From a virus (taxonomy: Duplodnaviria > Heunggongvirae > Uroviricota > Caudoviricetes): a stretch of DNA of 6,870 bases. The notes beneath the pieces were generated by a model that was given only the letters and a program-made list of their open reading frames with translations, ran no database searches and was not told where the DNA came from. The stretch lies in IMG/VR virus record IMGVR_UViG_2681813268_000003, positions 1-6,870 of that record; one strand, given 5' to 3'. Both the position numbers and the translations under genes were made by a program. Shown here piece after piece: positions 1 through 6,870 of the stretch. The stretch's first letter is position 1, and every line of letters begins with the position of its first letter.

Positions 1-62
1 GGGTTACCCCCAAACGAATCGGAAAATCGATACTGGAAAAACTCTAACTCGGTGGCCAGTTT

Positions 63-565
63 TTGTTGACCACTTCAGTTACAAACGAGCGAGTAACAAA
101 AATACGCGAACTGAAACGAAAAGGTAACGCTGCCAGCGTTACACAAACGGATCAAAAAGCGTTACCAGAGGAAGAGGAAGAGGAAGAGGAAGAGGAAGAG
201 GAAGAGGAAGAGGAAGATCTAAATACTGATCTCCCCCTCGCCAAAAACGAGCGTCTAAAAAATTCGAGCCGGAGGCTATTGAGCTGCCCGATTGGTTGCC
301 GGAAACACTCTGGCATGAGTGGGTCCGGTTCAGACAGGCATTGCGAAAACCGATTCGAACGGAGCAGGGCGCTAACGGGGCGATACGGGAACTGGAAAAA
401 TTCCGTCAGCAGGGTTTTACACCTGAGCAGGTGATTCGACACAGCATCGCCAATGAATACCAGGGCCTGTTCGCGCCGAAAGGTGTTCGGCCTGAGACGT
501 TGCTCCGACAGGTTAACACCGTCTCGTTGCCGGACAGTGCGATCCCGCCAGGCTTCAGGGGGTAA
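63..565 (+). pseudogene. DnaT-like primosomal/replication protein, disrupted. The C-terminal domain (about 230..565, frame 2) is intact; the upstream part including the poly-Glu tract is in frame 3, and all three frames have stops before nt 127
   Basis: Frame-2 translation ends ...VNTVSLPDSAIPPGFRG, which matches my recollection of the E. coli DnaT C-terminus (...VNTVSEPDSQIPPGFRG). Gene sits immediately 5' of a DnaC-like gene (stop 563-565, next ATG 572), as in dnaT-dnaC. Frames 3 and 2 are joined by a 1-nt shift at the C5 run 233-237; adding one C gives a continuous ORF 63..565. Only TTG starts are available at 63/66. Confidence 0.5.
168..215 (+). repeat. (GAGGAA)x8 perfect hexanucleotide repeat encoding 16 consecutive Glu in frame 3
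   Basis: Direct reading of the sequence: 48 nt of uninterrupted GAG GAA codons. Confidence 0.95.
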
Positions 566-571
566 CGGACC

Positions 572-1318
572 ATGAAAAATATTGCGACAGGCGGCGTTCT
601 GGAACGCATCCGCCGACTGACCCCGCCACATGTAACCGCCCCATTCAGAACGGTAGCGGAGTGGCGCGAGTGGCAACTTGCTGAAGGCCAGAAACGTAGC
701 GAGGAGATCAACCGCCTGAATCGCCAGTTGCGGGTGGAAAAAATTCTGAATCGCTCAGGCATCCAGCCGTTGCACCGTAAATGCTCGTTTGCGAATTACC
801 AGGTGCAGAACGACGGCCAGCGATACGCGTTAAGCCAGGCGAAATCCATCGCCGATGAACTGATGACCGGGTGTACAAATTTTGCGTTCAGCGGAAAACC
901 TGGTACCGGGAAGAATCACTTAGCGGCAGCTATCGGGAATCGCCTGCTGAAAGACGGTCAGACAGTGATTGTGGTTACCGTGGCTGATGTTATGAGCGCC
1001 CTGCACGCCAGCTATGACGACGGGCAGTCAGGCGAAAAATTTTTGCGGGAGCTGTGCGAAGTGGATCTGCTGGTTCTTGATGAAATTGGCATTCAGCGCG
1101 AGACGAAAAACGAGCAGGTGGTGCTGCACCAGATTGTTGATCGCCGGACAGCGTCGATGCGCAGCGTGGGGATGCTGACAAACCTGAACTATGAGGTGAT
1201 GAAAACATTGCTCGGCGAGCGGGTGATGGATCGCATGGTCATGAACGGCGGGCGCTGGGTGAATTTTAACTGGGAGAGCTGGCGTCCGAATGTTAGCCAT
1301 TCGAGGGTTGTTAAGTAG
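572..1318 (+). CDS. DnaC-like replicative helicase loader (AAA+ ATPase)
   Basis: 248-aa ORF with Walker A FSGKPGTGKNHLAAAIG and Walker B DLLVLDEIG. Sequence closely resembles E. coli DnaC as I recall it (GKPGTGKNHLAAAI..., LLGERVMDRM...). Starts 7 nt after the DnaT-like stop. Confidence 0.9.
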   Translation: MKNIATGGVLERIRRLTPPHVTAPFRTVAEWREWQLAEGQKRSEEINRLNRQLRVEKILNRSGIQPLHRKCSFANYQVQNDGQRYALSQAKSIADELMTGCTNFAFSGKPGTGKNHLAAAIGNRLLKDGQTVIVVTVADVMSALHASYDDGQSGEKFLRELCEVDLLVLDEIGIQRETKNEQVVLHQIVDRRTASMRSVGMLTNLNYEVMKTLLGERVMDRMVMNGGRWVNFNWESWRPNVSHSRVVK

Positions 1319-1332
1319 TTTCAGGAGGATTT

Positions 1333-1755
1333 ATGGCGAAACCTTTTACTCCCGAACAGCGGGAAGAACTGAAGACGCGAATTGTGGAACTCGTGCATCA
1401 GGACGGTCGGGTCACGATTCGGCAGTTGTCAGATGAAACAGGTATCAGTCGTGCGTCTGTCGGTCGCTTATGCATAGAACTGGTCGCAAGTGGTGATGTA
1501 TATAATTCTGGCTACGGCTTATTCCCGTCTGAACAGGCTCGCAAGGACTGGCAAAGCGCCCGCAAAAAACTCTCGAGAGTAAAGGTGAGGAAACCGGTTG
1601 TTGTTGATCCGGACCTTATCTGGTCATTACCTGACGGAGAAATACGCCGCTACGACAGGCGCCTGAATATAATCTGTCGCGAGTGCCGGAAGAGCGAAGC
1701 TATGCAGCGTGTACTGGCTTTCTATCAGGGTAATTTTCAGGAGGCGATACTGTGA
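1333..1755 (+). CDS. Small putative DNA-binding protein with N-terminal winged-helix/HTH-like segment; function unknown
   Basis: 140-aa ORF with strong SD AGGAGG (1323-1328) before ATG 1333. N-terminus (...VTIRQLSDETGISRASVGRL...) looks like an HTH; basic C-terminus with CRECRK. No family confidently recognised. Confidence 0.7.
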   Translation: MAKPFTPEQREELKTRIVELVHQDGRVTIRQLSDETGISRASVGRLCIELVASGDVYNSGYGLFPSEQARKDWQSARKKLSRVKVRKPVVVDPDLIWSLPDGEIRRYDRRLNIICRECRKSEAMQRVLAFYQGNFQEAIL

Positions 1756-1812
1756 ATGAAATTAGCTATCAGGCTTCAATTACCGCTGGCATTCGCATCA
1801 AAGGAGAGGAGC

Positions 1813-2169
1813 ATGGAAATAAAACCAGAAGATGAGTTAAGCAATATTGTTTTATTTCCGGTAAAAGAGGATAACCCTCGTAATCAGGTTAATTTTCTTT
1901 ATGAGCCATCGGAAAGACCATATTGCCATCACGCCTCTGTACGGGTTGACGAAAAAGAGCGTCAGGTCCGCTGTAAAATCTGCGGTGCGGTTGTGGAGCC
2001 GTTTGACTGGATGCTCTCTGTGGCAAAAAGAGAAACCAGACTGGCAGATGATGTAAGGCTATTGCGCCAGGAGGAACAGGAAAGGCGGAGAAATATAGAA
2101 AAGCTGATACAGATTGAGCGTAACGCGAAAGCGCGGATACGCAGGGCGACAAAATCCAGAACTGAATAA
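1813..2169 (+). CDS. Zinc-ribbon-like protein with C-terminal basic coiled-coil; function unknown. Alternative start at ATG 1756
   Basis: ORF 1756..2169; internal ATG 1813 has a strong SD (AAGGAGAGGAG 1801-1811). Cys/His motif YCHH...CKICG followed by a charged helical tail (RLADDVRLLRQEEQERRRNIEKLIQIERNAKARIRR). Confidence 0.65.
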   Translation: MEIKPEDELSNIVLFPVKEDNPRNQVNFLYEPSERPYCHHASVRVDEKERQVRCKICGAVVEPFDWMLSVAKRETRLADDVRLLRQEEQERRRNIEKLIQIERNAKARIRRATKSRTE

Positions 2170-2255
2170 TTAAATTTAGCACTGTTAAAAATTTAATCCT
2201 TAACCGGAGGGATTTCTGCACCCTCAAATCATCAGGAGACCACCCGAAAGGGCGG
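1942..2255 (+). repeat. Copy A of a 314-bp near-exact direct repeat (zinc-ribbon gene 3' half plus downstream intergenic); partner at 4185..4498
   Basis: Base-by-base comparison: identical except 2242 a vs 4485 g. A further 13 bp (1928-1940) match 4166-4178 just before the N gap. Confidence 0.95.
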
Positions 2256-2316
2256 GGAGCAGTCACACATCTGTTTCCGATAGCCCCGTTCTAATGCTAC
2301 ACTCTTTGATATTTTT

Positions 2317-3003
2317 ATGACCCCAATAAACATATTTATGACAGTTGCTGATTTCAAACGGCCCAAATTGGAGCTCCCAAACGGGGCAAACAAACTACTA
2401 CTGCACTCTTGCTGTGCTCCATGTTCCGGTGAGGTGATGGAGGCGCTTCAGGCCTCGGGAATCGACTACACCATCTTTTTCTACAACCCGAACATTCATC
2501 CTCAGAAAGAGTATTTAATTCGTAAGGATGAGAATATTCGCTTTGCTGAACAACACGGCGTGCCGTTTATTGATGCTGATTACGACACAGACAACTGGTT
2601 TGAACGAGCCAAAGGAATGGAATGGGAGCCCGAACGAGGGATCCGTTGCACCATGTGTTTTGACATGCGTTTTGAGCGGACAGCGCTGTACGCCGCTGAA
2701 AATGGTTTCAGTGTGATCAGCAGTTCACTGGGCATTTCACGCTGGAAAAATATGCAGCAGGTTAACGACTGTGGGCGGCGAGCCGTCGCGCATTATCCGG
2801 GCATGGTGTACTGGGATTATAACTGGCGCAAGCAGGGCGGCTCGTCCCGTATGATTGAAATCAGCAAGCGCGAAAAATTCTATCAGCAGGAATATTGTGG
2901 CTGTGTGTATTCTCTGCGCGATACCAATCTACACCGCAAATCTCAGGGACGCCCTCTTATCAAAATTGGTCAACTCCACTACGGTAAAGAAGAGAAGGAG
3001 TGA
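2317..3003 (+). CDS. queH: QueH-like protein (DUF208 family, putative B12-independent epoxyqueuosine reductase)
   Basis: 228-aa ORF with N-proximal [11 protein letters not shown] motif and additional conserved Cys (CTMCFD, EYCGCVY), which I recognise as DUF208/QueH hallmarks. No obvious SD; alternative start ATG 2338. Confidence 0.7.
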
Positions 3004-3024
3004 TTTTATGGGGCACCTTTCTGA

Positions 3025-3054
3025 TTGATTTCATATTGGCGAGGTAAGTAGAAT
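3025..3054 (+). promoter_or_regulatory. Putative sigma70 promoter of hok/mok mRNA copy 1 (TTGATT -18- TAGAAT)
   Basis: -35-like TTGATT 3025-3030 and -10-like TAGAAT 3049-3054; predicted start near 3060, just before the tac-like element. Confidence 0.4.
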
Positions 3055-3057
3055 GAC

Positions 3058-3072
3058 TGCGGGTGCTTGAGG
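3058..3072 (+). promoter_or_regulatory. tac-like 5' element of hok mRNA copy 1 (TGCGGGTGCTTGAGG), complementary to the fbi-like 3' element at 3443..3458
   Basis: 15 bp pair with 3443-3458 (CCTCAACGCACCCGCA) with one bulged C. Same 5'/3' fold-back architecture as described for plasmid R1 hok mRNA. Copy 2 equivalents at 6400-6414 and 6779-6794. Confidence 0.55.
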
Positions 3073-3104
3073 CTATCTGCTTCAGGCATGAACACCAAAA
3101 GGCA

Positions 3105-3182
3105 GATAGAGAAAAGCCCCAGTTAACATTACGCGTCCGGCAAGACGCTTAACATTAATCTGAGGCCAATTTCATGCTTTGC
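3105..3182 (-). ncRNA. Putative Sok-like antisense RNA of hok locus 1 (extent approximate)
   Basis: Inferred by analogy to hok/sok. Minus strand has -35-like TTGCCT (complement of 3212-3217) and weak -10-like TAACCT (complement of 3189-3194) with 17-nt spacing, pointing transcription antisense across the mok start (3174). 3' end not defined. Confidence 0.25.
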
Positions 3183-3386
3183 ACATGTAGGTTAGCCTCT
3201 TACATGCCGAAAGGCAAGGAGAAGCAGGCTATGAAGCAGCAAAAGGCGATGTTAATCGCCCTGATCGTCATCTGTTTAACCGTCATAGTGACGGCACTGG
3301 TAACGAGGAAAGACCTCTGTGAGGTACGAATCCGAACCGGCCAGACGGAGGTCGCTGTCTTCGTAGACTACGAATCCAGGAAGTAA
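3174..3386 (+). CDS. mok: Mok-like regulatory ORF, in frame with and containing hok (70 aa)
   Basis: ATG 3174, same frame as hok. Same in-frame arrangement as I recall for E. coli MokC/HokC. Confidence 0.5.
   Translation: MLCTCRLASYMPKGKEKQAMKQQKAMLIALIVICLTVIVTALVTRKDLCEVRIRTGQTEVAVFVDYESRK
3231..3386 (+). CDS. hok: Hok/Gef-family type I toxin (51 aa, single TM helix)
   Basis: MKQQKAMLIALIVICLTVIVTALVTRKDLCEVRIRTGQTEVAVFVDYESRK is near-identical to recalled HokD/HokC sequences. SD AAGGAG 3215-3220 before ATG 3231. Confidence 0.9.
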   Translation: MKQQKAMLIALIVICLTVIVTALVTRKDLCEVRIRTGQTEVAVFVDYESRK

Positions 3387-3463
3387 GAGTGACCGGGCGG
3401 GGAGCTGATCCCATCCCCGCCCACCTCTGATGTGTCAGGCATCCTCAACGCACCCGCACTTAA

Positions 3464-3506
3464 CCCGCCCATCGCTGTGATCTCTCAGCGTTTCGGCGGG
3501 TTTTTT
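3464..3506 (+). terminator. Rho-independent terminator / 3' end of hok mRNA copy 1
   Basis: Two-tier hairpin: CCCGCC 3464-3469 pairs GGCGGG 3495-3500; inner CGCTG 3473-3477 pairs CAGCG 3486-3490; followed by T6 3501-3506. Confidence 0.7.
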
Positions 3507-3526
3507 GTTGTTTATTTCCGGTGAAT

Positions 3527-3554
3527 TTGATTCGCGCACCTTCGCAGATAGAAT
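3527..3554 (+). promoter_or_regulatory. Putative sigma70 promoter (TTGATT -16- TAGAAT) upstream of the 95-aa ORF
   Basis: TTGATT 3527-3532 and TAGAAT 3549-3554, located just after the hok1 terminator. Confidence 0.4.
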
Positions 3555-3635
3555 CGACTCACTTAAGTAGCGCGCAGGGAGAAGAGGGATGGACCCCGAA
3601 CAGGGGAGAGCTATTTATCTGGAAGGATTCTGAAG

Positions 3636-3923
3636 ATGAAAATCGAAGAATTGCGTGAAATTTTTAGTGAAAATGGCCTCTATGCTGTGCGCGTTGAGAA
3701 TGGAGCGATTGTCAGCCATTGCCGCATTAGATGTTTGCAATCTCAACAAAGGAAGAGCGGTGCTGTGTTATTTTATTTTTGTAATGGACTTCTGACGGAC
3801 GGTTTTATTTTGCGTGAGGACGAATTTGTCACATCATTACGGGTTTTGAAAGAGATTGGTTTTAAGGCTGGTTTTCTGCTTTTGCTGAAGAATAAACTCA
3901 TCTACAATCTTGAGCAGGATTGA
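3636..3923 (+). CDS. Hypothetical protein (95 aa)
   Basis: ORF with SD GGAAGGA 3621-3627, 8 nt before ATG 3636. No recognised motif. Confidence 0.55.
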   Translation: MKIEELREIFSENGLYAVRVENGAIVSHCRIRCLQSQQRKSGAVLFYFCNGLLTDGFILREDEFVTSLRVLKEIGFKAGFLLLLKNKLIYNLEQD

Positions 3924-3961
3924 ACTCCTGCTGTGTAACACCGTGCCACCGGAGAAAGCCG

Positions 3962-4178
3962 ATGGCACATATACAACTGGTCAAACAAACCTCTTCCGGA
4001 TTACTTCTCCCGGCGACGCCGGAGAGTTGCGATTTTCTGCATCAAATCAAAATAGGTGAGTGGATACACGCAGACTTTAAGCGTGTGTGTAACTACGCAT
4101 TCCACAAGCGTTTTTTCAAACTCCTGCAACTGGGTTTCGATTACTGGACTCCGGTCGGTGGGGCGATCACGCCTCTGT
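3962..4178 (+). CDS. Phage nin-region protein, 3'-truncated at the N gap (possibly DUF1367-like, tentative)
   Basis: ATG 3962 preceded by GGAGA 3951-3955. Translation MAHIQLVKQTSSGLLLPATPESCDFLHQIKIGEWIHADFKRVCNYAFHKRFFKLLQLGFDYWTPVGG... runs into the N run at 4179. Family assignment is from memory only. Confidence 0.5.
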
Positions 4179-4184
4179 NNNNNN
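4179..4184. other. Run of 6 N: assembly/scaffold gap of unknown true length
   Basis: Literal nnnnnn in the sequence; flanks correspond to positions 1940 and 1942 of the upstream repeat copy. Confidence 0.95.
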
Positions 4185-4412
4185 CGGGTTGACGAAAAAG
4201 AGCGTCAGGTCCGCTGTAAAATCTGCGGTGCGGTTGTGGAGCCGTTTGACTGGATGCTCTCTGTGGCAAAAAGAGAAACCAGACTGGCAGATGATGTAAG
4301 GCTATTGCGCCAGGAGGAACAGGAAAGGCGGAGAAATATAGAAAAGCTGATACAGATTGAGCGTAACGCGAAAGCGCGGATACGCAGGGCGACAAAATCC
4401 AGAACTGAATAA
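4185..4412 (+). CDS. 5'-truncated second copy of the zinc-ribbon/coiled-coil protein (3' 228 nt identical to 1942..2169)
   Basis: Frame-3 translation from the gap edge (RVDEKERQVRCKICGAVVEPFDWML...ATKSRTE) is identical to the C-terminus of the 1813..2169 product. Confidence 0.5.
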   Translation, partial: RVDEKERQVRCKICGAVVEPFDWMLSVAKRETRLADDVRLLRQEEQERRRNIEKLIQIERNAKARIRRATKSRTE

Positions 4413-4498
4413 TTAAATTTAGCACTGTTAAAAATTTAATCCTTAACCGGAGGGATTTCTGCACCCTCAAATCATCAGGAGACCGCCCGAAAGGGCGG
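4185..4498 (+). repeat. Copy B of the 314-bp direct repeat (partner 1942..2255)
   Basis: See copy A. Ends in a GAAA-loop hairpin (4482-4499) that is perfect here but mismatched in copy A. Confidence 0.95.
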
Positions 4499-4504
4499 TA
4501 ATGA

Positions 4505-4723
4505 ATGGTTACATTATTTAGAAAAAAATATCCGCGAAAGAGTAGAACAACAGAATTCCTGTTTCTCATTCTGTTTATCGTGTTGATGACACCGATATCC
4601 CCGCTAATTTTTGTCTGGATAATCGGAAAAATAATTGAGCCAGTTATTGAATTGTATAACGACGTGGTATGGGCGTCATTCAACACACTGCACAATAAAA
4701 TTAATCCGTATAAGGAAAGCTGA
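4505..4723 (+). CDS. Small hydrophobic (membrane) protein, 72 aa, AT-rich
   Basis: ORF with hydrophobic core FLFLILFIVLMTPISPLIFVWIIGKII. Stop 4721-4723 is 1 nt before the HNH start 4725. Markedly AT-rich compared with its neighbours. Weak SD. Confidence 0.4.
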   Translation: MVTLFRKKYPRKSRTTEFLFLILFIVLMTPISPLIFVWIIGKIIEPVIELYNDVVWASFNTLHNKINPYKES

Positions 4724-4724
4724 T

Positions 4725-5090
4725 ATGGCACTGACGAAAAAACAACGTGCAGAACTGCGCATGAAGTTCGGTGGTCGCTGCGCTTATTGCGGCTGCGAAC
4801 TTGGCGAAAAGTGGCATGCAGACCATGTAAAACCGGTCATTCGTTTTGATGGAAATATGCTTCACCAGGAACGTGACGATATATCCAACATGGTACCAGC
4901 ATGCCACCCATGCAATCTGCACAAGCATTGCAGTAGCCTGGAAGATTATCGACGAATTATCAGTGATGGTCGTCGTGAATTCCTTGCGTCCGGGAAAGGC
5001 AAAGCGCTGGTTCGTATGGGATTGGTTGAAATGAAATCTGACCCGGTTGTGTTCTGGTTTGAAAAATATCAAGAAGGGGCTACGGCATGA
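4725..5090 (+). CDS. HNH endonuclease-domain protein (121 aa)
   Basis: SD TAAGGAAAG before ATG 4725. HNH signature CAYCGCEL...WHADHVKPV...NMVPACHPCNLHKH. The tool ORF from 4635 has no RBS support. Confidence 0.85.
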   Translation: MALTKKQRAELRMKFGGRCAYCGCELGEKWHADHVKPVIRFDGNMLHQERDDISNMVPACHPCNLHKHCSSLEDYRRIISDGRREFLASGKGKALVRMGLVEMKSDPVVFWFEKYQEGATA

Positions 5091-5752
5091 CCACTATTAC
5101 CAAAGAGCGACTGCAATGGCTGGCTAACATTTCTGGCCGCGATGATATTGACGATATAGACGGCGGTGAAATTCGTGAACTGGCGCTTATCGCTCTGGCA
5201 TCACTGGAAGCAGAGCCTGTAGCGGAATGCATTGTTGAAGATGGGGGCATGTGTATTGACGGGTTCGGTGAGTATGTGGGTCACTCGCTGCCTGATGGAA
5301 TGCATGAGCTTTATGCTGCCCCGCGAATGCGACAACCTGATGGATGGAAAGCCGTAGCTGTAGCGTGGAAGGTGACGTTTACTCAAGTTGACCAGGAATC
5401 TAATACGTTCACTGCTATATATTTTGACAAAGCGGAAGTTGAGTGTTGGGTACGACTGCATAAAGCATGTGATTTTCGGGCAGATATAACACCGCTTTAC
5501 GCAGCGCCGGCAGTGCCGGTTGCAGTAAACGACGACATGGCTTACGCATTCCATCACGCACTGTCAGATTCATCGCTTGGCTCTGATGAAATCGAAGAAA
5601 TTAAAACCGGTTTGCGTGCTGCCTTTGCCAACGTCACTATCCAACCAGAGCCGATAGTGCCGGATGAAATCGGGCCAAACGATAGTAATACGTTTGATTA
5701 TGTTGATGGCTGGAACGCCTGCCGCGCTGCCATGCTTAAGGGAGATAAATAA
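5087..5752 (+). CDS. Hypothetical protein (221 aa), acidic N-terminus, two LYAAP-containing segments
   Basis: ATG 5087 overlaps HNH stop (ATGA 5087-5090). Coding-like composition. No recognised family. Confidence 0.7.
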   Translation: MTTITKERLQWLANISGRDDIDDIDGGEIRELALIALASLEAEPVAECIVEDGGMCIDGFGEYVGHSLPDGMHELYAAPRMRQPDGWKAVAVAWKVTFTQVDQESNTFTAIYFDKAEVECWVRLHKACDFRADITPLYAAPAVPVAVNDDMAYAFHHALSDSSLGSDEIEEIKTGLRAAFANVTIQPEPIVPDEIGPNDSNTFDYVDGWNACRAAMLKGDK

Positions 5753-6117
5753 TGATTAATCGAACCAAACTGGAGCACATTCTCGAATATGCCAGGCAGC
5801 AGAAATGTATTGGGCAACTTTGTAAAATTCCACCAGGAGATATGGTTGAAATCGTGGAAATGGCCATGCGTAAGGCTGGCAACTCTCCGGTAGCTCCGGC
5901 TGGCTGGATAAGCTGTAGTGATGCAGTTCCTGCTGAATATTGCGATGTGATTCTTCTCGATGATCTCGGGAATGTATTCCCCGGTTCCTGGGATAAGGTT
6001 TTTTGCCCCACTCGTGGCGGGAATAAGATGGCTTTTGTGGACAAAGACGGCGTTGAAGTAGAGAGCTCAACTCACTGGATGCCGCTACCGGAACCACCGC
6101 AGGAGGTGAATCAATGA
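5752..6117 (+). CDS. DUF551-like phage protein (121 aa)
   Basis: ATG 5752 overlaps previous stop (TAATG). C-terminal ...THWMPLPEPPQE and WISCSDAVPAEY... resemble the DUF551 pattern found in lambdoid nin regions (from memory). Confidence 0.7.
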   Translation: MINRTKLEHILEYARQQKCIGQLCKIPPGDMVEIVEMAMRKAGNSPVAPAGWISCSDAVPAEYCDVILLDDLGNVFPGSWDKVFCPTRGGNKMAFVDKDGVEVESSTHWMPLPEPPQEVNQ

Positions 6118-6197
6118 CCTGGCCTGAGGCATTCACCACGGTAGGAATTGCGATGGCGGTGGCGCTGGTGGTGTATTCGATTTGCCGTTGGGGTTAA
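6114..6197 (+). CDS. Putative 27-aa hydrophobic micropeptide (MTWPEAFTTVGIAMAVALVVYSICRWG)
   Basis: Below the ORF-track length cutoff. ATG 6114 overlaps DUF551 stop (ATGA), strong SD AGGAGG 6101-6106 at 7-nt spacing, stops 7 nt before a strong terminator. Confidence 0.4.
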   Translation: MTWPEAFTTVGIAMAVALVVYSICRWG

Positions 6198-6207
6198 CAA
6201 ACAAAAA

Positions 6208-6233
6208 CCCCGGATTGATGGTCCGGGGTTTTT
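6208..6233 (+). terminator. Rho-independent terminator closing the HNH-containing operon
   Basis: CCCCGGA 6208-6214 pairs TCCGGGG 6222-6228, 7-nt loop, then T5 6229-6233. Confidence 0.75.
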
Positions 6234-6445
6234 GAAGGAAACAAAACAGAAACAGCAATTGCCGTTACCTGTTGTTACCATGGCAAGTAAACGTATCTCA
6301 GGCGAGCGCATTGCGCCGTTCTGACGCAGATAAACTAGCCTGGATAGATGGTGCTGGCAATAAAAAATAGCGTTTTCTTATCGGTGTCGGTAAGATTGCT
6401 GCGGGTGCTTGAGGCTGTCTGCCTCGGGTATGTCACTGTAAGGCA

Positions 6446-6523
6446 GACAGAGAAAAGCCCCAGTTAACATTACGCGTCCTGCAAGACGCTTAACATTAAT
6501 CTGAGGCCCAATCTATGTCTCAC
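6446..6523 (-). ncRNA. Putative Sok-like antisense RNA of hok locus 2 (extent approximate)
   Basis: By analogy only; the same minus-strand hexamers as locus 1 are conserved (complement of AGGCAA and AGGTTA). Confidence 0.2.
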
Positions 6524-6727
6524 AAATGTAGGTTAGCCTCTTACGTGCCGAAAGGCAAGGAGAAGCAGGCTATGAAGCAGCAAAAGGCGATGTTAATCGC
6601 CCTGATCGTCATCTGTTTAACCGTCATTGTGACGGCACTGGTAACGAGGAAAGACCTCTGCGAGGTACGAATCCGAATCGGCCAGACGGAGGTCGCTGTT
6701 TTCGTAGACTACGAATCTAGAGAGTAA
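6515..6727 (+). CDS. mok: Mok-like regulatory ORF, in frame with and containing hok copy 2 (70 aa)
   Basis: ATG 6515, same architecture as locus 1. N-terminus differs (MSHKCRLASYV vs MLCTCRLASYM). Confidence 0.5.
   Translation: MSHKCRLASYVPKGKEKQAMKQQKAMLIALIVICLTVIVTALVTRKDLCEVRIRIGQTEVAVFVDYESRE
6572..6727 (+). CDS. hok: Hok/Gef-family type I toxin, second paralog (51 aa)
   Basis: MKQQKAMLIALIVICLTVIVTALVTRKDLCEVRIRIGQTEVAVFVDYESRE. Differs from copy 1 at T35I and the C-terminal residue. SD AAGGAG before ATG 6572. Confidence 0.9.
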   Translation: MKQQKAMLIALIVICLTVIVTALVTRKDLCEVRIRIGQTEVAVFVDYESRE

Positions 6728-6799
6728 GAGTGACCAGGCGGGAGAGTAATCTCCCGCCACCTTTGATGTGTCAGGCATCCTCAACGCACCCGCACTTAA

Positions 6800-6819
6800 C
6801 CCGTTTCGGCGGTTTTTTT
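6800..6819 (+). terminator. Degenerate terminator of hok copy 2 (T7 tract with minimal stem)
   Basis: Relative to copy 1, about 25 nt of the hairpin are missing; CCG/CGG with a 3-nt loop remains, followed by T7 6813-6819. Confidence 0.3.
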
Positions 6820-6870
6820 GGTAATGACTCCAACTTATTGATAGTGTTTTATGTTCAGATAATGCCCGAT

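Follow-up and report, generated by a model that had tools for sequence, protein, structure and literature searches.

We analysed a stretch of 6,870 nucleotides (nt) of viral DNA (Caudoviricetes; IMG/VR record IMGVR_UViG_2681813268_000003, positions 1 to 6,870), hereafter the window, and found that its positions 3025-3506 very probably constitute a complete hok/mok/sok type I toxin-antitoxin module. We assign this module to the hokD/hokW (HokC-like) subfamily, in the early region of a lambdoid prophage, where it would work through an mRNA closed by pairing of its 5′ element tac (translational activator) with its 3′ element fbi (fold-back inhibition), together with the antisense RNA Sok. The module is already known and annotated, and is an ordinary and very common element. 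An earlier note, made from the sequence alone, had proposed a locus of this architecture, and all the elements that it named are present within a few bases of the positions it gave.

Coding parts and leader of the locus

The coding part of the locus consists of two nested open reading frames (ORFs) behind a sigma-70-like promoter:

3025-3054, + strand: hok/mok mRNA promoter, with a -35 hexamer TTGATT (3025-3030), an 18-nt spacer and a -10 hexamer TAGAAT (3049-3054)
3162-3165, + strand: Shine-Dalgarno (SD) sequence of mok, GAGG, read from the sequence 8 nt upstream of the mok ATG
3174-3386, + strand: mok ORF from the list of reading frames, 70 codons, in the frame of hok and sharing its stop codon
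3231-3386, + strand: hok ORF, 51 amino acids, MKQQKAMLIALIVICLTVIVTALVTRKDLCEVRIRTGQTEVAVFVDYESRK, with the SD sequence AAGGAG at 3216-3221

The Hok peptide matches the Pfam family PF01848 (Hok/Gef) over the full 42-position profile, with 81.1 bits against a cut-off of 22 (E = 4.3e-23). In DNA that is 100% identical it has been annotated as hokD by the Prokaryotic Genome Annotation Pipeline (PGAP), under the name 'type I toxin-antitoxin system toxin HokD' (WP_014532198.1). This upholds the toxin ORF of the earlier note, with the correction that the hok ATG lies at 3231. The Mok-like ORF that had been described upstream and in frame is likewise there: it aligns with K-12 mokC and VT2-Sakai mokW, and the layout is that of mokC/hokC and mokW/hokW.

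The 5′ leader (3061-3236, + strand) matches Rfam RF01794 with 117 bits against a gathering score of 59, over positions 1-157 of the 157 in the model. The family bears the name 'sok', yet its model covers the hok-sense 5′ leader. Over the whole window this model is matched twice (3061-3236 and 6403-6577), both times on the + strand and in full, and a permissive Rfam search of 2950-3700 returned RF01794 only, with no other RNA family over the locus or the leader downstream of it. The promoter scores 9 of 12 consensus positions in a generic promoter scan, and the first position of the Rfam model aligns with 3061, just downstream of it; we infer a transcript start at about 3059-3061.

Pairing of the two ends of the predicted mRNA

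The two elements that would close the full-length RNA are the following:

3059-3072, + strand: tac, at the 5′ end of the mRNA, partner of fbi in the full-length RNA
3443-3457, + strand: fbi, CCTCAACGCACCCGC, complementary to tac, with C3449 bulged

The earlier note had reported complementarity between 3058-3072 and 3443-3458, and had proposed folding of the transcript of about 450 nt as a check. In the minimum free energy (MFE) fold of the 447-nt RNA (3060-3506) tac and fbi form a helix of 7 bp (3060-3066:3450-3456) and 6 bp (3067-3072:3443-3448), to which G3059-C3457 may be added as a further pair, giving 13-14 bp in total. The complementarity is hence borne out at the level of the fold, with the sole correction that the helix contains a one-base bulge. 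Pair probabilities in the full-length ensemble range from 0.89 to 1.0, and pairing stays at 0.98 or above across 20 combinations of assumed 5′ and 3′ ends. The RNA as a whole folds at -190.7 kcal/mol, against -137.6 ± 5.8 kcal/mol for dinucleotide shuffles (z = -9.2, with 0 of 100 shuffles as good).

To place this helix in context, it has to be compared with what unrelated sequence offers and with what relatives of the locus contain. The bare duplex between tac and the 3′ untranslated region reaches -27.3 kcal/mol, which none of 200 shuffled 3′ regions equals (their mean is -19.4 and their best value -26.4 kcal/mol). Taken alone this margin is small, and the comparative evidence is more persuasive. 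When full-length RNAs of related loci were folded, the probability of pairing between tac and the 3′ region was 0.87-1.0 in all nine loci tested. Three of these nine are R1-type plasmid loci (from Klebsiella, Cronobacter and Citrobacter) with other tac and fbi sequences that are nevertheless complementary, including an exchange of a U-A for a C-G pair. On the other hand, in K-12 hokC and in a copy on a Salmonella IncY plasmid, an IS186/IS421 element replaces the 3′ region, and there the best duplex is no better than in shuffles. We consider the tac/fbi pairing meaningful because the element is found at the equivalent place in relatives and is lost exactly where insertion sequence (IS) elements have replaced the 3′ end.

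Conservation was assessed over 56 unique hokD/W-type loci drawn from IMG/VR, phage records and the window. Both tac and fbi are nearly invariant in this set; as a consequence, no covariation between them could be counted inside the subfamily. The conserved block extends over about 3044-3490, starting at the -10 hexamer and fading within the terminator. As it spans the -10 hexamer to the terminator, the conserved block corresponds to the transcription unit.

These data bear directly on the simplest alternative, namely that the 5′/3′ complementarity arose by chance and that the region is just a small ORF with hairpins nearby. Its best argument is that the 18-mer in question is GC-rich and finds fair partners even in shuffled 3′ regions, the best of them within a kcal/mol of the real duplex. 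Against it stand the near invariance of the element at the same relative position in 56 loci, the different but still complementary pair of the R1-type loci, the Rfam and Pfam matches far over threshold, and the z-score of the whole transcript. We regard a chance origin as ruled out for all practical purposes.

Start sites and other structures of the full-length RNA

Besides the tac/fbi helix, four further elements shape the predicted RNA:

3113-3122, + strand: ucb (anti-SD box), partner of the mok SD in the full-length fold and of tac in the 'open' structure of the Rfam consensus
3079-3089, + strand: partner of tac in an early metastable 5′ hairpin (3063-3073:3079-3089, 11 bp), which forms when the first 35 nt or the 3′-truncated RNA are folded
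3395-3403/3414-3422, + strand: 3′ stem-loop after the stop codon, 9 bp, -20.9 kcal/mol
3462-3506, + strand: intrinsic terminator, with an outer stem 3462-3469/3495-3502, an inner stem 3473-3477/3486-3490 (-22.8 kcal/mol) and a T run to 3506

The ucb element pairs with the mok SD region in the MFE fold (3116-3118:3164-3166 and 3120-3122:3160-3162). In the full-length ensemble the SD and AUG of mok and of hok are all mostly paired, and for three of the four bases of the GAGG motif the probability of being unpaired is 0.0. The fold thus matches the published closed form, in which tac is paired with fbi, the mok SD is boxed and the SD and AUG of hok are buried, in agreement with the long-range 5′/3′ architecture that had been claimed for the locus. 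The alternative partner of ucb is visible in the Rfam alignment, which pairs 3061-3068 with 3113-3119 as a tac/ucb stem. The early 5′ hairpin, for its part, corresponds to the metastable structure of R1 hok (PMC9841398).

The 3′ side of the RNA contains the stem-loops and the terminator that the earlier note had listed. By analogy with R1, where mutation of the last stem-loop of the truncated mRNA abolishes toxicity (PMC9841398), the stem-loop at 3395-3422 is likely the protective end of the processed mRNA. The terminator is an interrupted hairpin (3462-3502) followed by the T run. Its loop carries an insertion of 23 nt relative to K-12 hokD and to a second copy of the module in the window (see below), which makes the inner 5-bp stem. 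This exact variant is found in only 2 of 5,426 complete E. coli genomes; a version with 78-79% identity to it is present in another four. The generic terminator scan did not report 3462-3506 owing to its loop limit of 8 nt; the terminator was found by folding and alignment instead.

A predicted Sok gene opposite the mok start

The opposite strand carries the elements expected of the antitoxin:

3189-3217, - strand: Sok promoter, read from the sequence, with a -35 hexamer TTGCCT (3217->3212), a 17-nt spacer and a -10 hexamer TAACCT (3194->3189)
3182->3106, - strand: predicted Sok-like antisense RNA of about 71-77 nt, in which an unpaired 5′ tail precedes a long hairpin and a U-rich end

This convergent promoter, located within the mok/hok start region, would give rise to Sok as an antisense RNA to the start region of mok, about 71-77 nt long and with a predicted folding energy of -30.2 kcal/mol. 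The annotated K-12 sokC maps onto 3182->3106 and the annotated sokW of VT2-Sakai onto about 3181->3111. We assigned the Sok promoter through homology to sokW and not through a generic scan: its -35 and -10 hexamers are identical in VT2-Sakai sokW, and the promoter-less mutant of sokW targets exactly the TAACCT -10 hexamer (primer YO-421, Table 2 of PMC8621323).

Comparison with known hok systems

The closest relatives of the locus are hokW/mokW/sokW of VT2-Sakai (Sp5) and 933W, with about 91% DNA identity over 3038-3465. HokW and the Hok of the window are identical at 50 of 51 positions, the one change being E50R. VT2-Sakai hokW has the same tac and fbi, mokW is likewise in frame with hokW, and the carrier is again a lambdoid prophage. 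The differences lie elsewhere: in the patch that comprises the mok start and the Sok 5′ tail, whose sequence is not the same; after fbi, where VT2-Sakai diverges at once and the window has its terminator hairpin with the insertion; and in the flanking genes. The hokW-sokW locus of Sp5 has been studied experimentally and encodes a toxin and an RNA antitoxin, with neutralisation partly dependent on RNase III and Hfq; it raises Sp5 release after mitomycin C (PMC8621323). Given the near identity of the two toxins and the shared Sok hexamers, the suggestion of the earlier note that the locus may be functional seems reasonable by analogy.

The earlier note had also stated that several K-12 hok loci are damaged, which is right for the two that we compared. 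K-12 hokD (relF, in the Qin prophage) lies at the same place in its prophage, ahead of rem, ydfU and ydfT (Q). It is homologous to the window in the coding region, the 3′ stem-loop, fbi and the core of the terminator, with a C-terminus that reads VFTAYEPEE as compared with VFVDYESRK in the window. However, homology is absent upstream of about 3217, where relE abuts the hok SD, so that K-12 hokD is devoid of tac, ucb, the Sok gene and the mok start while retaining fbi and the terminator; no Rfam match was obtained in the K-12 hokD region. The damage to K-12 hokC (gef) is at the other end. Here hokC/mokC/sokC has the same leader architecture as the window (Rfam match of 118 bits), the same tac and mok in frame, and sokC is annotated opposite the mokC start, like Sok in the window. 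The leader and sokC are kept, but fbi and the terminator are missing because of an IS186 insertion on the 3′ side of the ORF. The sokC hairpin is also 18 nt shorter (59 nt for sokC against about 77 nt in the window).

More distant are the R1-type loci. R1 was compared through loci of its type on plasmids of other genera (Klebsiella, Citrobacter, Cronobacter and Enterobacter). They present the elements in the order found in the window (tac, ucb, mok SD, mok, hok, 3′ stem-loop, fbi, terminator), belong to the same Rfam family (93-109 bits) and have a predicted full-length tac/fbi pairing probability of 0.87. Their carrier is a plasmid instead of a prophage, and their mok, annotated DUF5431, uses another frame than hok and stops within the hok ORF, whereas mok of the window is in frame. 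Their tac and fbi read GGCGCUU..AGGCUU and AAGCCU..AAGCGCC, and those of the window GCGGGUGC-UUGAGG and CCUCAA-C-GCACCCGC, the differences including the U-A to C-G exchange and the bulged C of the window. At the protein level HokW and R1 Hok share only 44% identity (PMC8621323).

Two further loci look like degenerate remnants of hok leaders and were uninformative. One, on an E. albertii plasmid (L013), has a weak RF01794 match (68 bits) and neither a Hok-like ORF nor fbi; the other, on a Shigella boydii plasmid (L008), aligns with no more than the first 90 nt of the query and lacks an Rfam match.

Proposed mechanism and alternative readings

The R1 model, as summarised in PMC9841398, holds that tac/fbi pairing closes the full-length RNA while ucb masks the mok SD, that 3′ trimming leads to tac/ucb pairing, and that tac is engaged early in a metastable hairpin. 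On this model and on hokW we base the following scheme. In the predicted fold, tac/fbi pairing closes the transcript of about 447 nt, and the ribosome-binding sites of mok and hok are paired as well. Slow exonucleolytic trimming from the 3′ end would take off the terminator and fbi, upon which the 5′ end would refold, with tac pairing to ucb, and expose the mok start and the Sok target. As long as Sok is made it would pair with this target, and RNase III would destroy the duplex. When the unstable Sok pool drops, mok would be translated and hok with it through coupling, and the 51-amino-acid Hok peptide would depolarise the inner membrane. For a prophage the likely outcome, judging from Sp5, is earlier lysis and phage release upon induction, while roles in addiction or exclusion are possible.

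Four observations weigh against this reading. The Sok promoter escaped the generic promoter scan, as it agrees with the consensus at only 7 of 12 positions. The rare 23-nt insertion in the terminator may bear on 3′ processing. When the RNA is truncated at its 3′ end, the MFE fold keeps the early 5′ hairpin, and the open tac/ucb form lies 9-11 kcal/mol higher. Finally, intact chromosomal hokA and hokC of other strains gave no post-segregational killing, according to the passage of bioRxiv 10.1101/2025.08.07.668861 that cites Pedersen & Gerdes 1999. The last two are what would be expected if the locus were intact in sequence but phenotypically silent, that is, transcribed and held off by Sok and the closed fold without any killing, addiction or lysis phenotype. 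We consider this unlikely. The nearly identical hokW-sokW has measurable phenotypes (PMC8621323), and the strong conservation of all non-coding control elements in the 56 loci argues for selection on regulated expression. The truncated fold, moreover, was dropped as evidence against function, as a control showed that it does not discriminate: the experimentally active hokW is also predicted without the open form, the prediction being as negative as for the window, while the second copy and the PPompW locus do give it.

It is also conceivable, although doubtful and only slightly less improbable than a silent locus, that the RNAs work as described while the module serves mainly to stabilise the prophage or to defend against other phages by abortive infection, and not to help in lysis. 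Yet a survey saw no enrichment of hok beside defence systems (bioRxiv 10.1101/2025.08.07.668861), and the sole direct test of a prophage hokD/W-type locus showed a role in lysis and phage release (PMC8621323). By analogy with hokW, we favour a contribution to lysis and phage release at induction as the role of the module.

A second copy of the module and a possible specificity of Sok

The window contains a second complete hok/mok/sok copy at 6342-6820 (Rfam match 6403-6577, 118 bits; mok 6515-6727; hok 6572-6727). Its architecture and its tac/fbi, here 6402-6414 with 6779-6792, are the same as in the first copy. Its terminator hairpin is weak (-3.8 kcal/mol), with a stem one base shorter than that of K-12 hokD. 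The two modules probably come from two prophages of one genome.

Comparison of both copies reveals a strongly uneven distribution of differences: 9 of 21 positions differ in 3166-3186, against 34 of 381 in the rest of the transcript. The predicted Sok RNAs differ at 8 of their first 15 nt and at 2 of the remaining 62. Duplexes between Sok tails and targets have energies of -40 and -44 kcal/mol for the cognate combinations and of -16 and -20 kcal/mol for the non-cognate ones, a gap of about 20-28 kcal/mol. Across the 56 loci, few stretches of the transcript vary as much as the region of the mok start and the Sok target (sokT), of which there are at least 22 variants, whereas tac, fbi, ucb and the ORF are nearly fixed. 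We tentatively suggest, as an idea that has somewhat less than even chances of being correct, that the Sok-tail patch is under diversifying selection as a specificity code, and that the Sok of each prophage controls its own hok only.

Distribution and genomic setting

Two complete E. coli genomes (FDAARGOS_943 and FDAARGOS_944) contain the 482-bp region with 100% identity, and in both the PGAP annotation of the ORF is hokD. Similar DNA is present in 4,713 of 5,426 complete E. coli genomes (87%), with 80-95% identity in nearly all cases, at a median of 2 and a maximum of 9 places per genome. It also occurs in 110 phage records, including Stx phages that carry the mokW/hokW/sokW annotation.

The neighbouring genes are those of a lambdoid prophage early region. 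Upstream lie genes for a DnaC-like ATPase and a DUF977 protein, a zinc-ribbon ORF and the gene for QueH; downstream come a hypothetical ORF in the position of rem and then a DUF1367 gene. The 100% identical DNA continues from hokD with a hypothetical gene and then DUF1367, DUF1364 and DUF1133 genes, and in a Rac-type phage record hok is followed by rem, the DUF1367 gene (irsA), the DUF1364 gene (ybcO) and the Q antiterminator (DUF1133). The locus thus belongs to the HokD orthologue group both by its NCBI name, HokD, and by its prophage position upstream of rem and Q-region genes. VT2-Sakai differs from the window in these flanks, that is, in QueH upstream and in the rem-placed ORF and DUF1367 downstream.

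The QueH gene (2317-3003), directly upstream of the hok promoter, encodes an epoxyqueuosine reductase (PF02677, E = 2e-65), a tRNA-modification enzyme carried as prophage cargo. On the other side of the locus, a second promoter-like site at 3527-3554 repeats the hexamers of the hok promoter (TTGATT, 16 nt, TAGAAT). Next comes a leader of about 80 nt, conserved in front of rem both in K-12 and in a Rac-type phage record, to which no Rfam family matches. After this leader (region 3527-3635) comes an ORF of 95 amino acids (3636-3923) without a Pfam match.

Other features of the window

Within hok itself, the heptamer CTACGAA at 3368-3374 includes the TACG motif and the Tyr47 codon TAC (3369-3371). 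As RNA it reads CUACGAA, compared with UUACGAA in K-12 hokD; a clear flanking stem was not seen around it. CUACGAA is the sequence of the tRNA-Arg anticodon loop. TadA is reported to perform A-to-I editing of the hokC, hokD and hokE mRNAs at the equivalent Tyr, recoding it to Cys (PMC5630033).

The window seems to consist of two prophage fragments that meet at a gap, and not of one contiguous sequence, since six Ns at 4179-4184 break a DUF1367-like ORF and are followed, at 4185-4484, by an exact 300-nt copy of 1942-2241. We checked this duplicate (228 of 228 positions between 4185-4412 and 1942-2169, with identity continuing for 72 nt). Among the complete E. coli genomes, none matches more than 77% of the window in one place. 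Near the start of the window, 16 consecutive glutamate codons (168-215) lie in a TTG-started ORF (63-434), and the aligned gene in the matching genome is annotated as 'hypothetical protein'.

Implications

The hok/sok mechanism is a textbook case of toxin expression controlled by RNA folding, and its prophage copies hokW and hokD are annotated and characterised. The locus described here is a clean, fully mapped and intact example of the hokD type, against which the exact losses of K-12 hokD and hokC can be read. Two diverged copies side by side also make a convenient system for the specificity of Sok and for cross-talk between prophage toxin modules. If each Sok does control its own hok only, modules that reside in the same cell would not serve as anti-addiction elements for each other.

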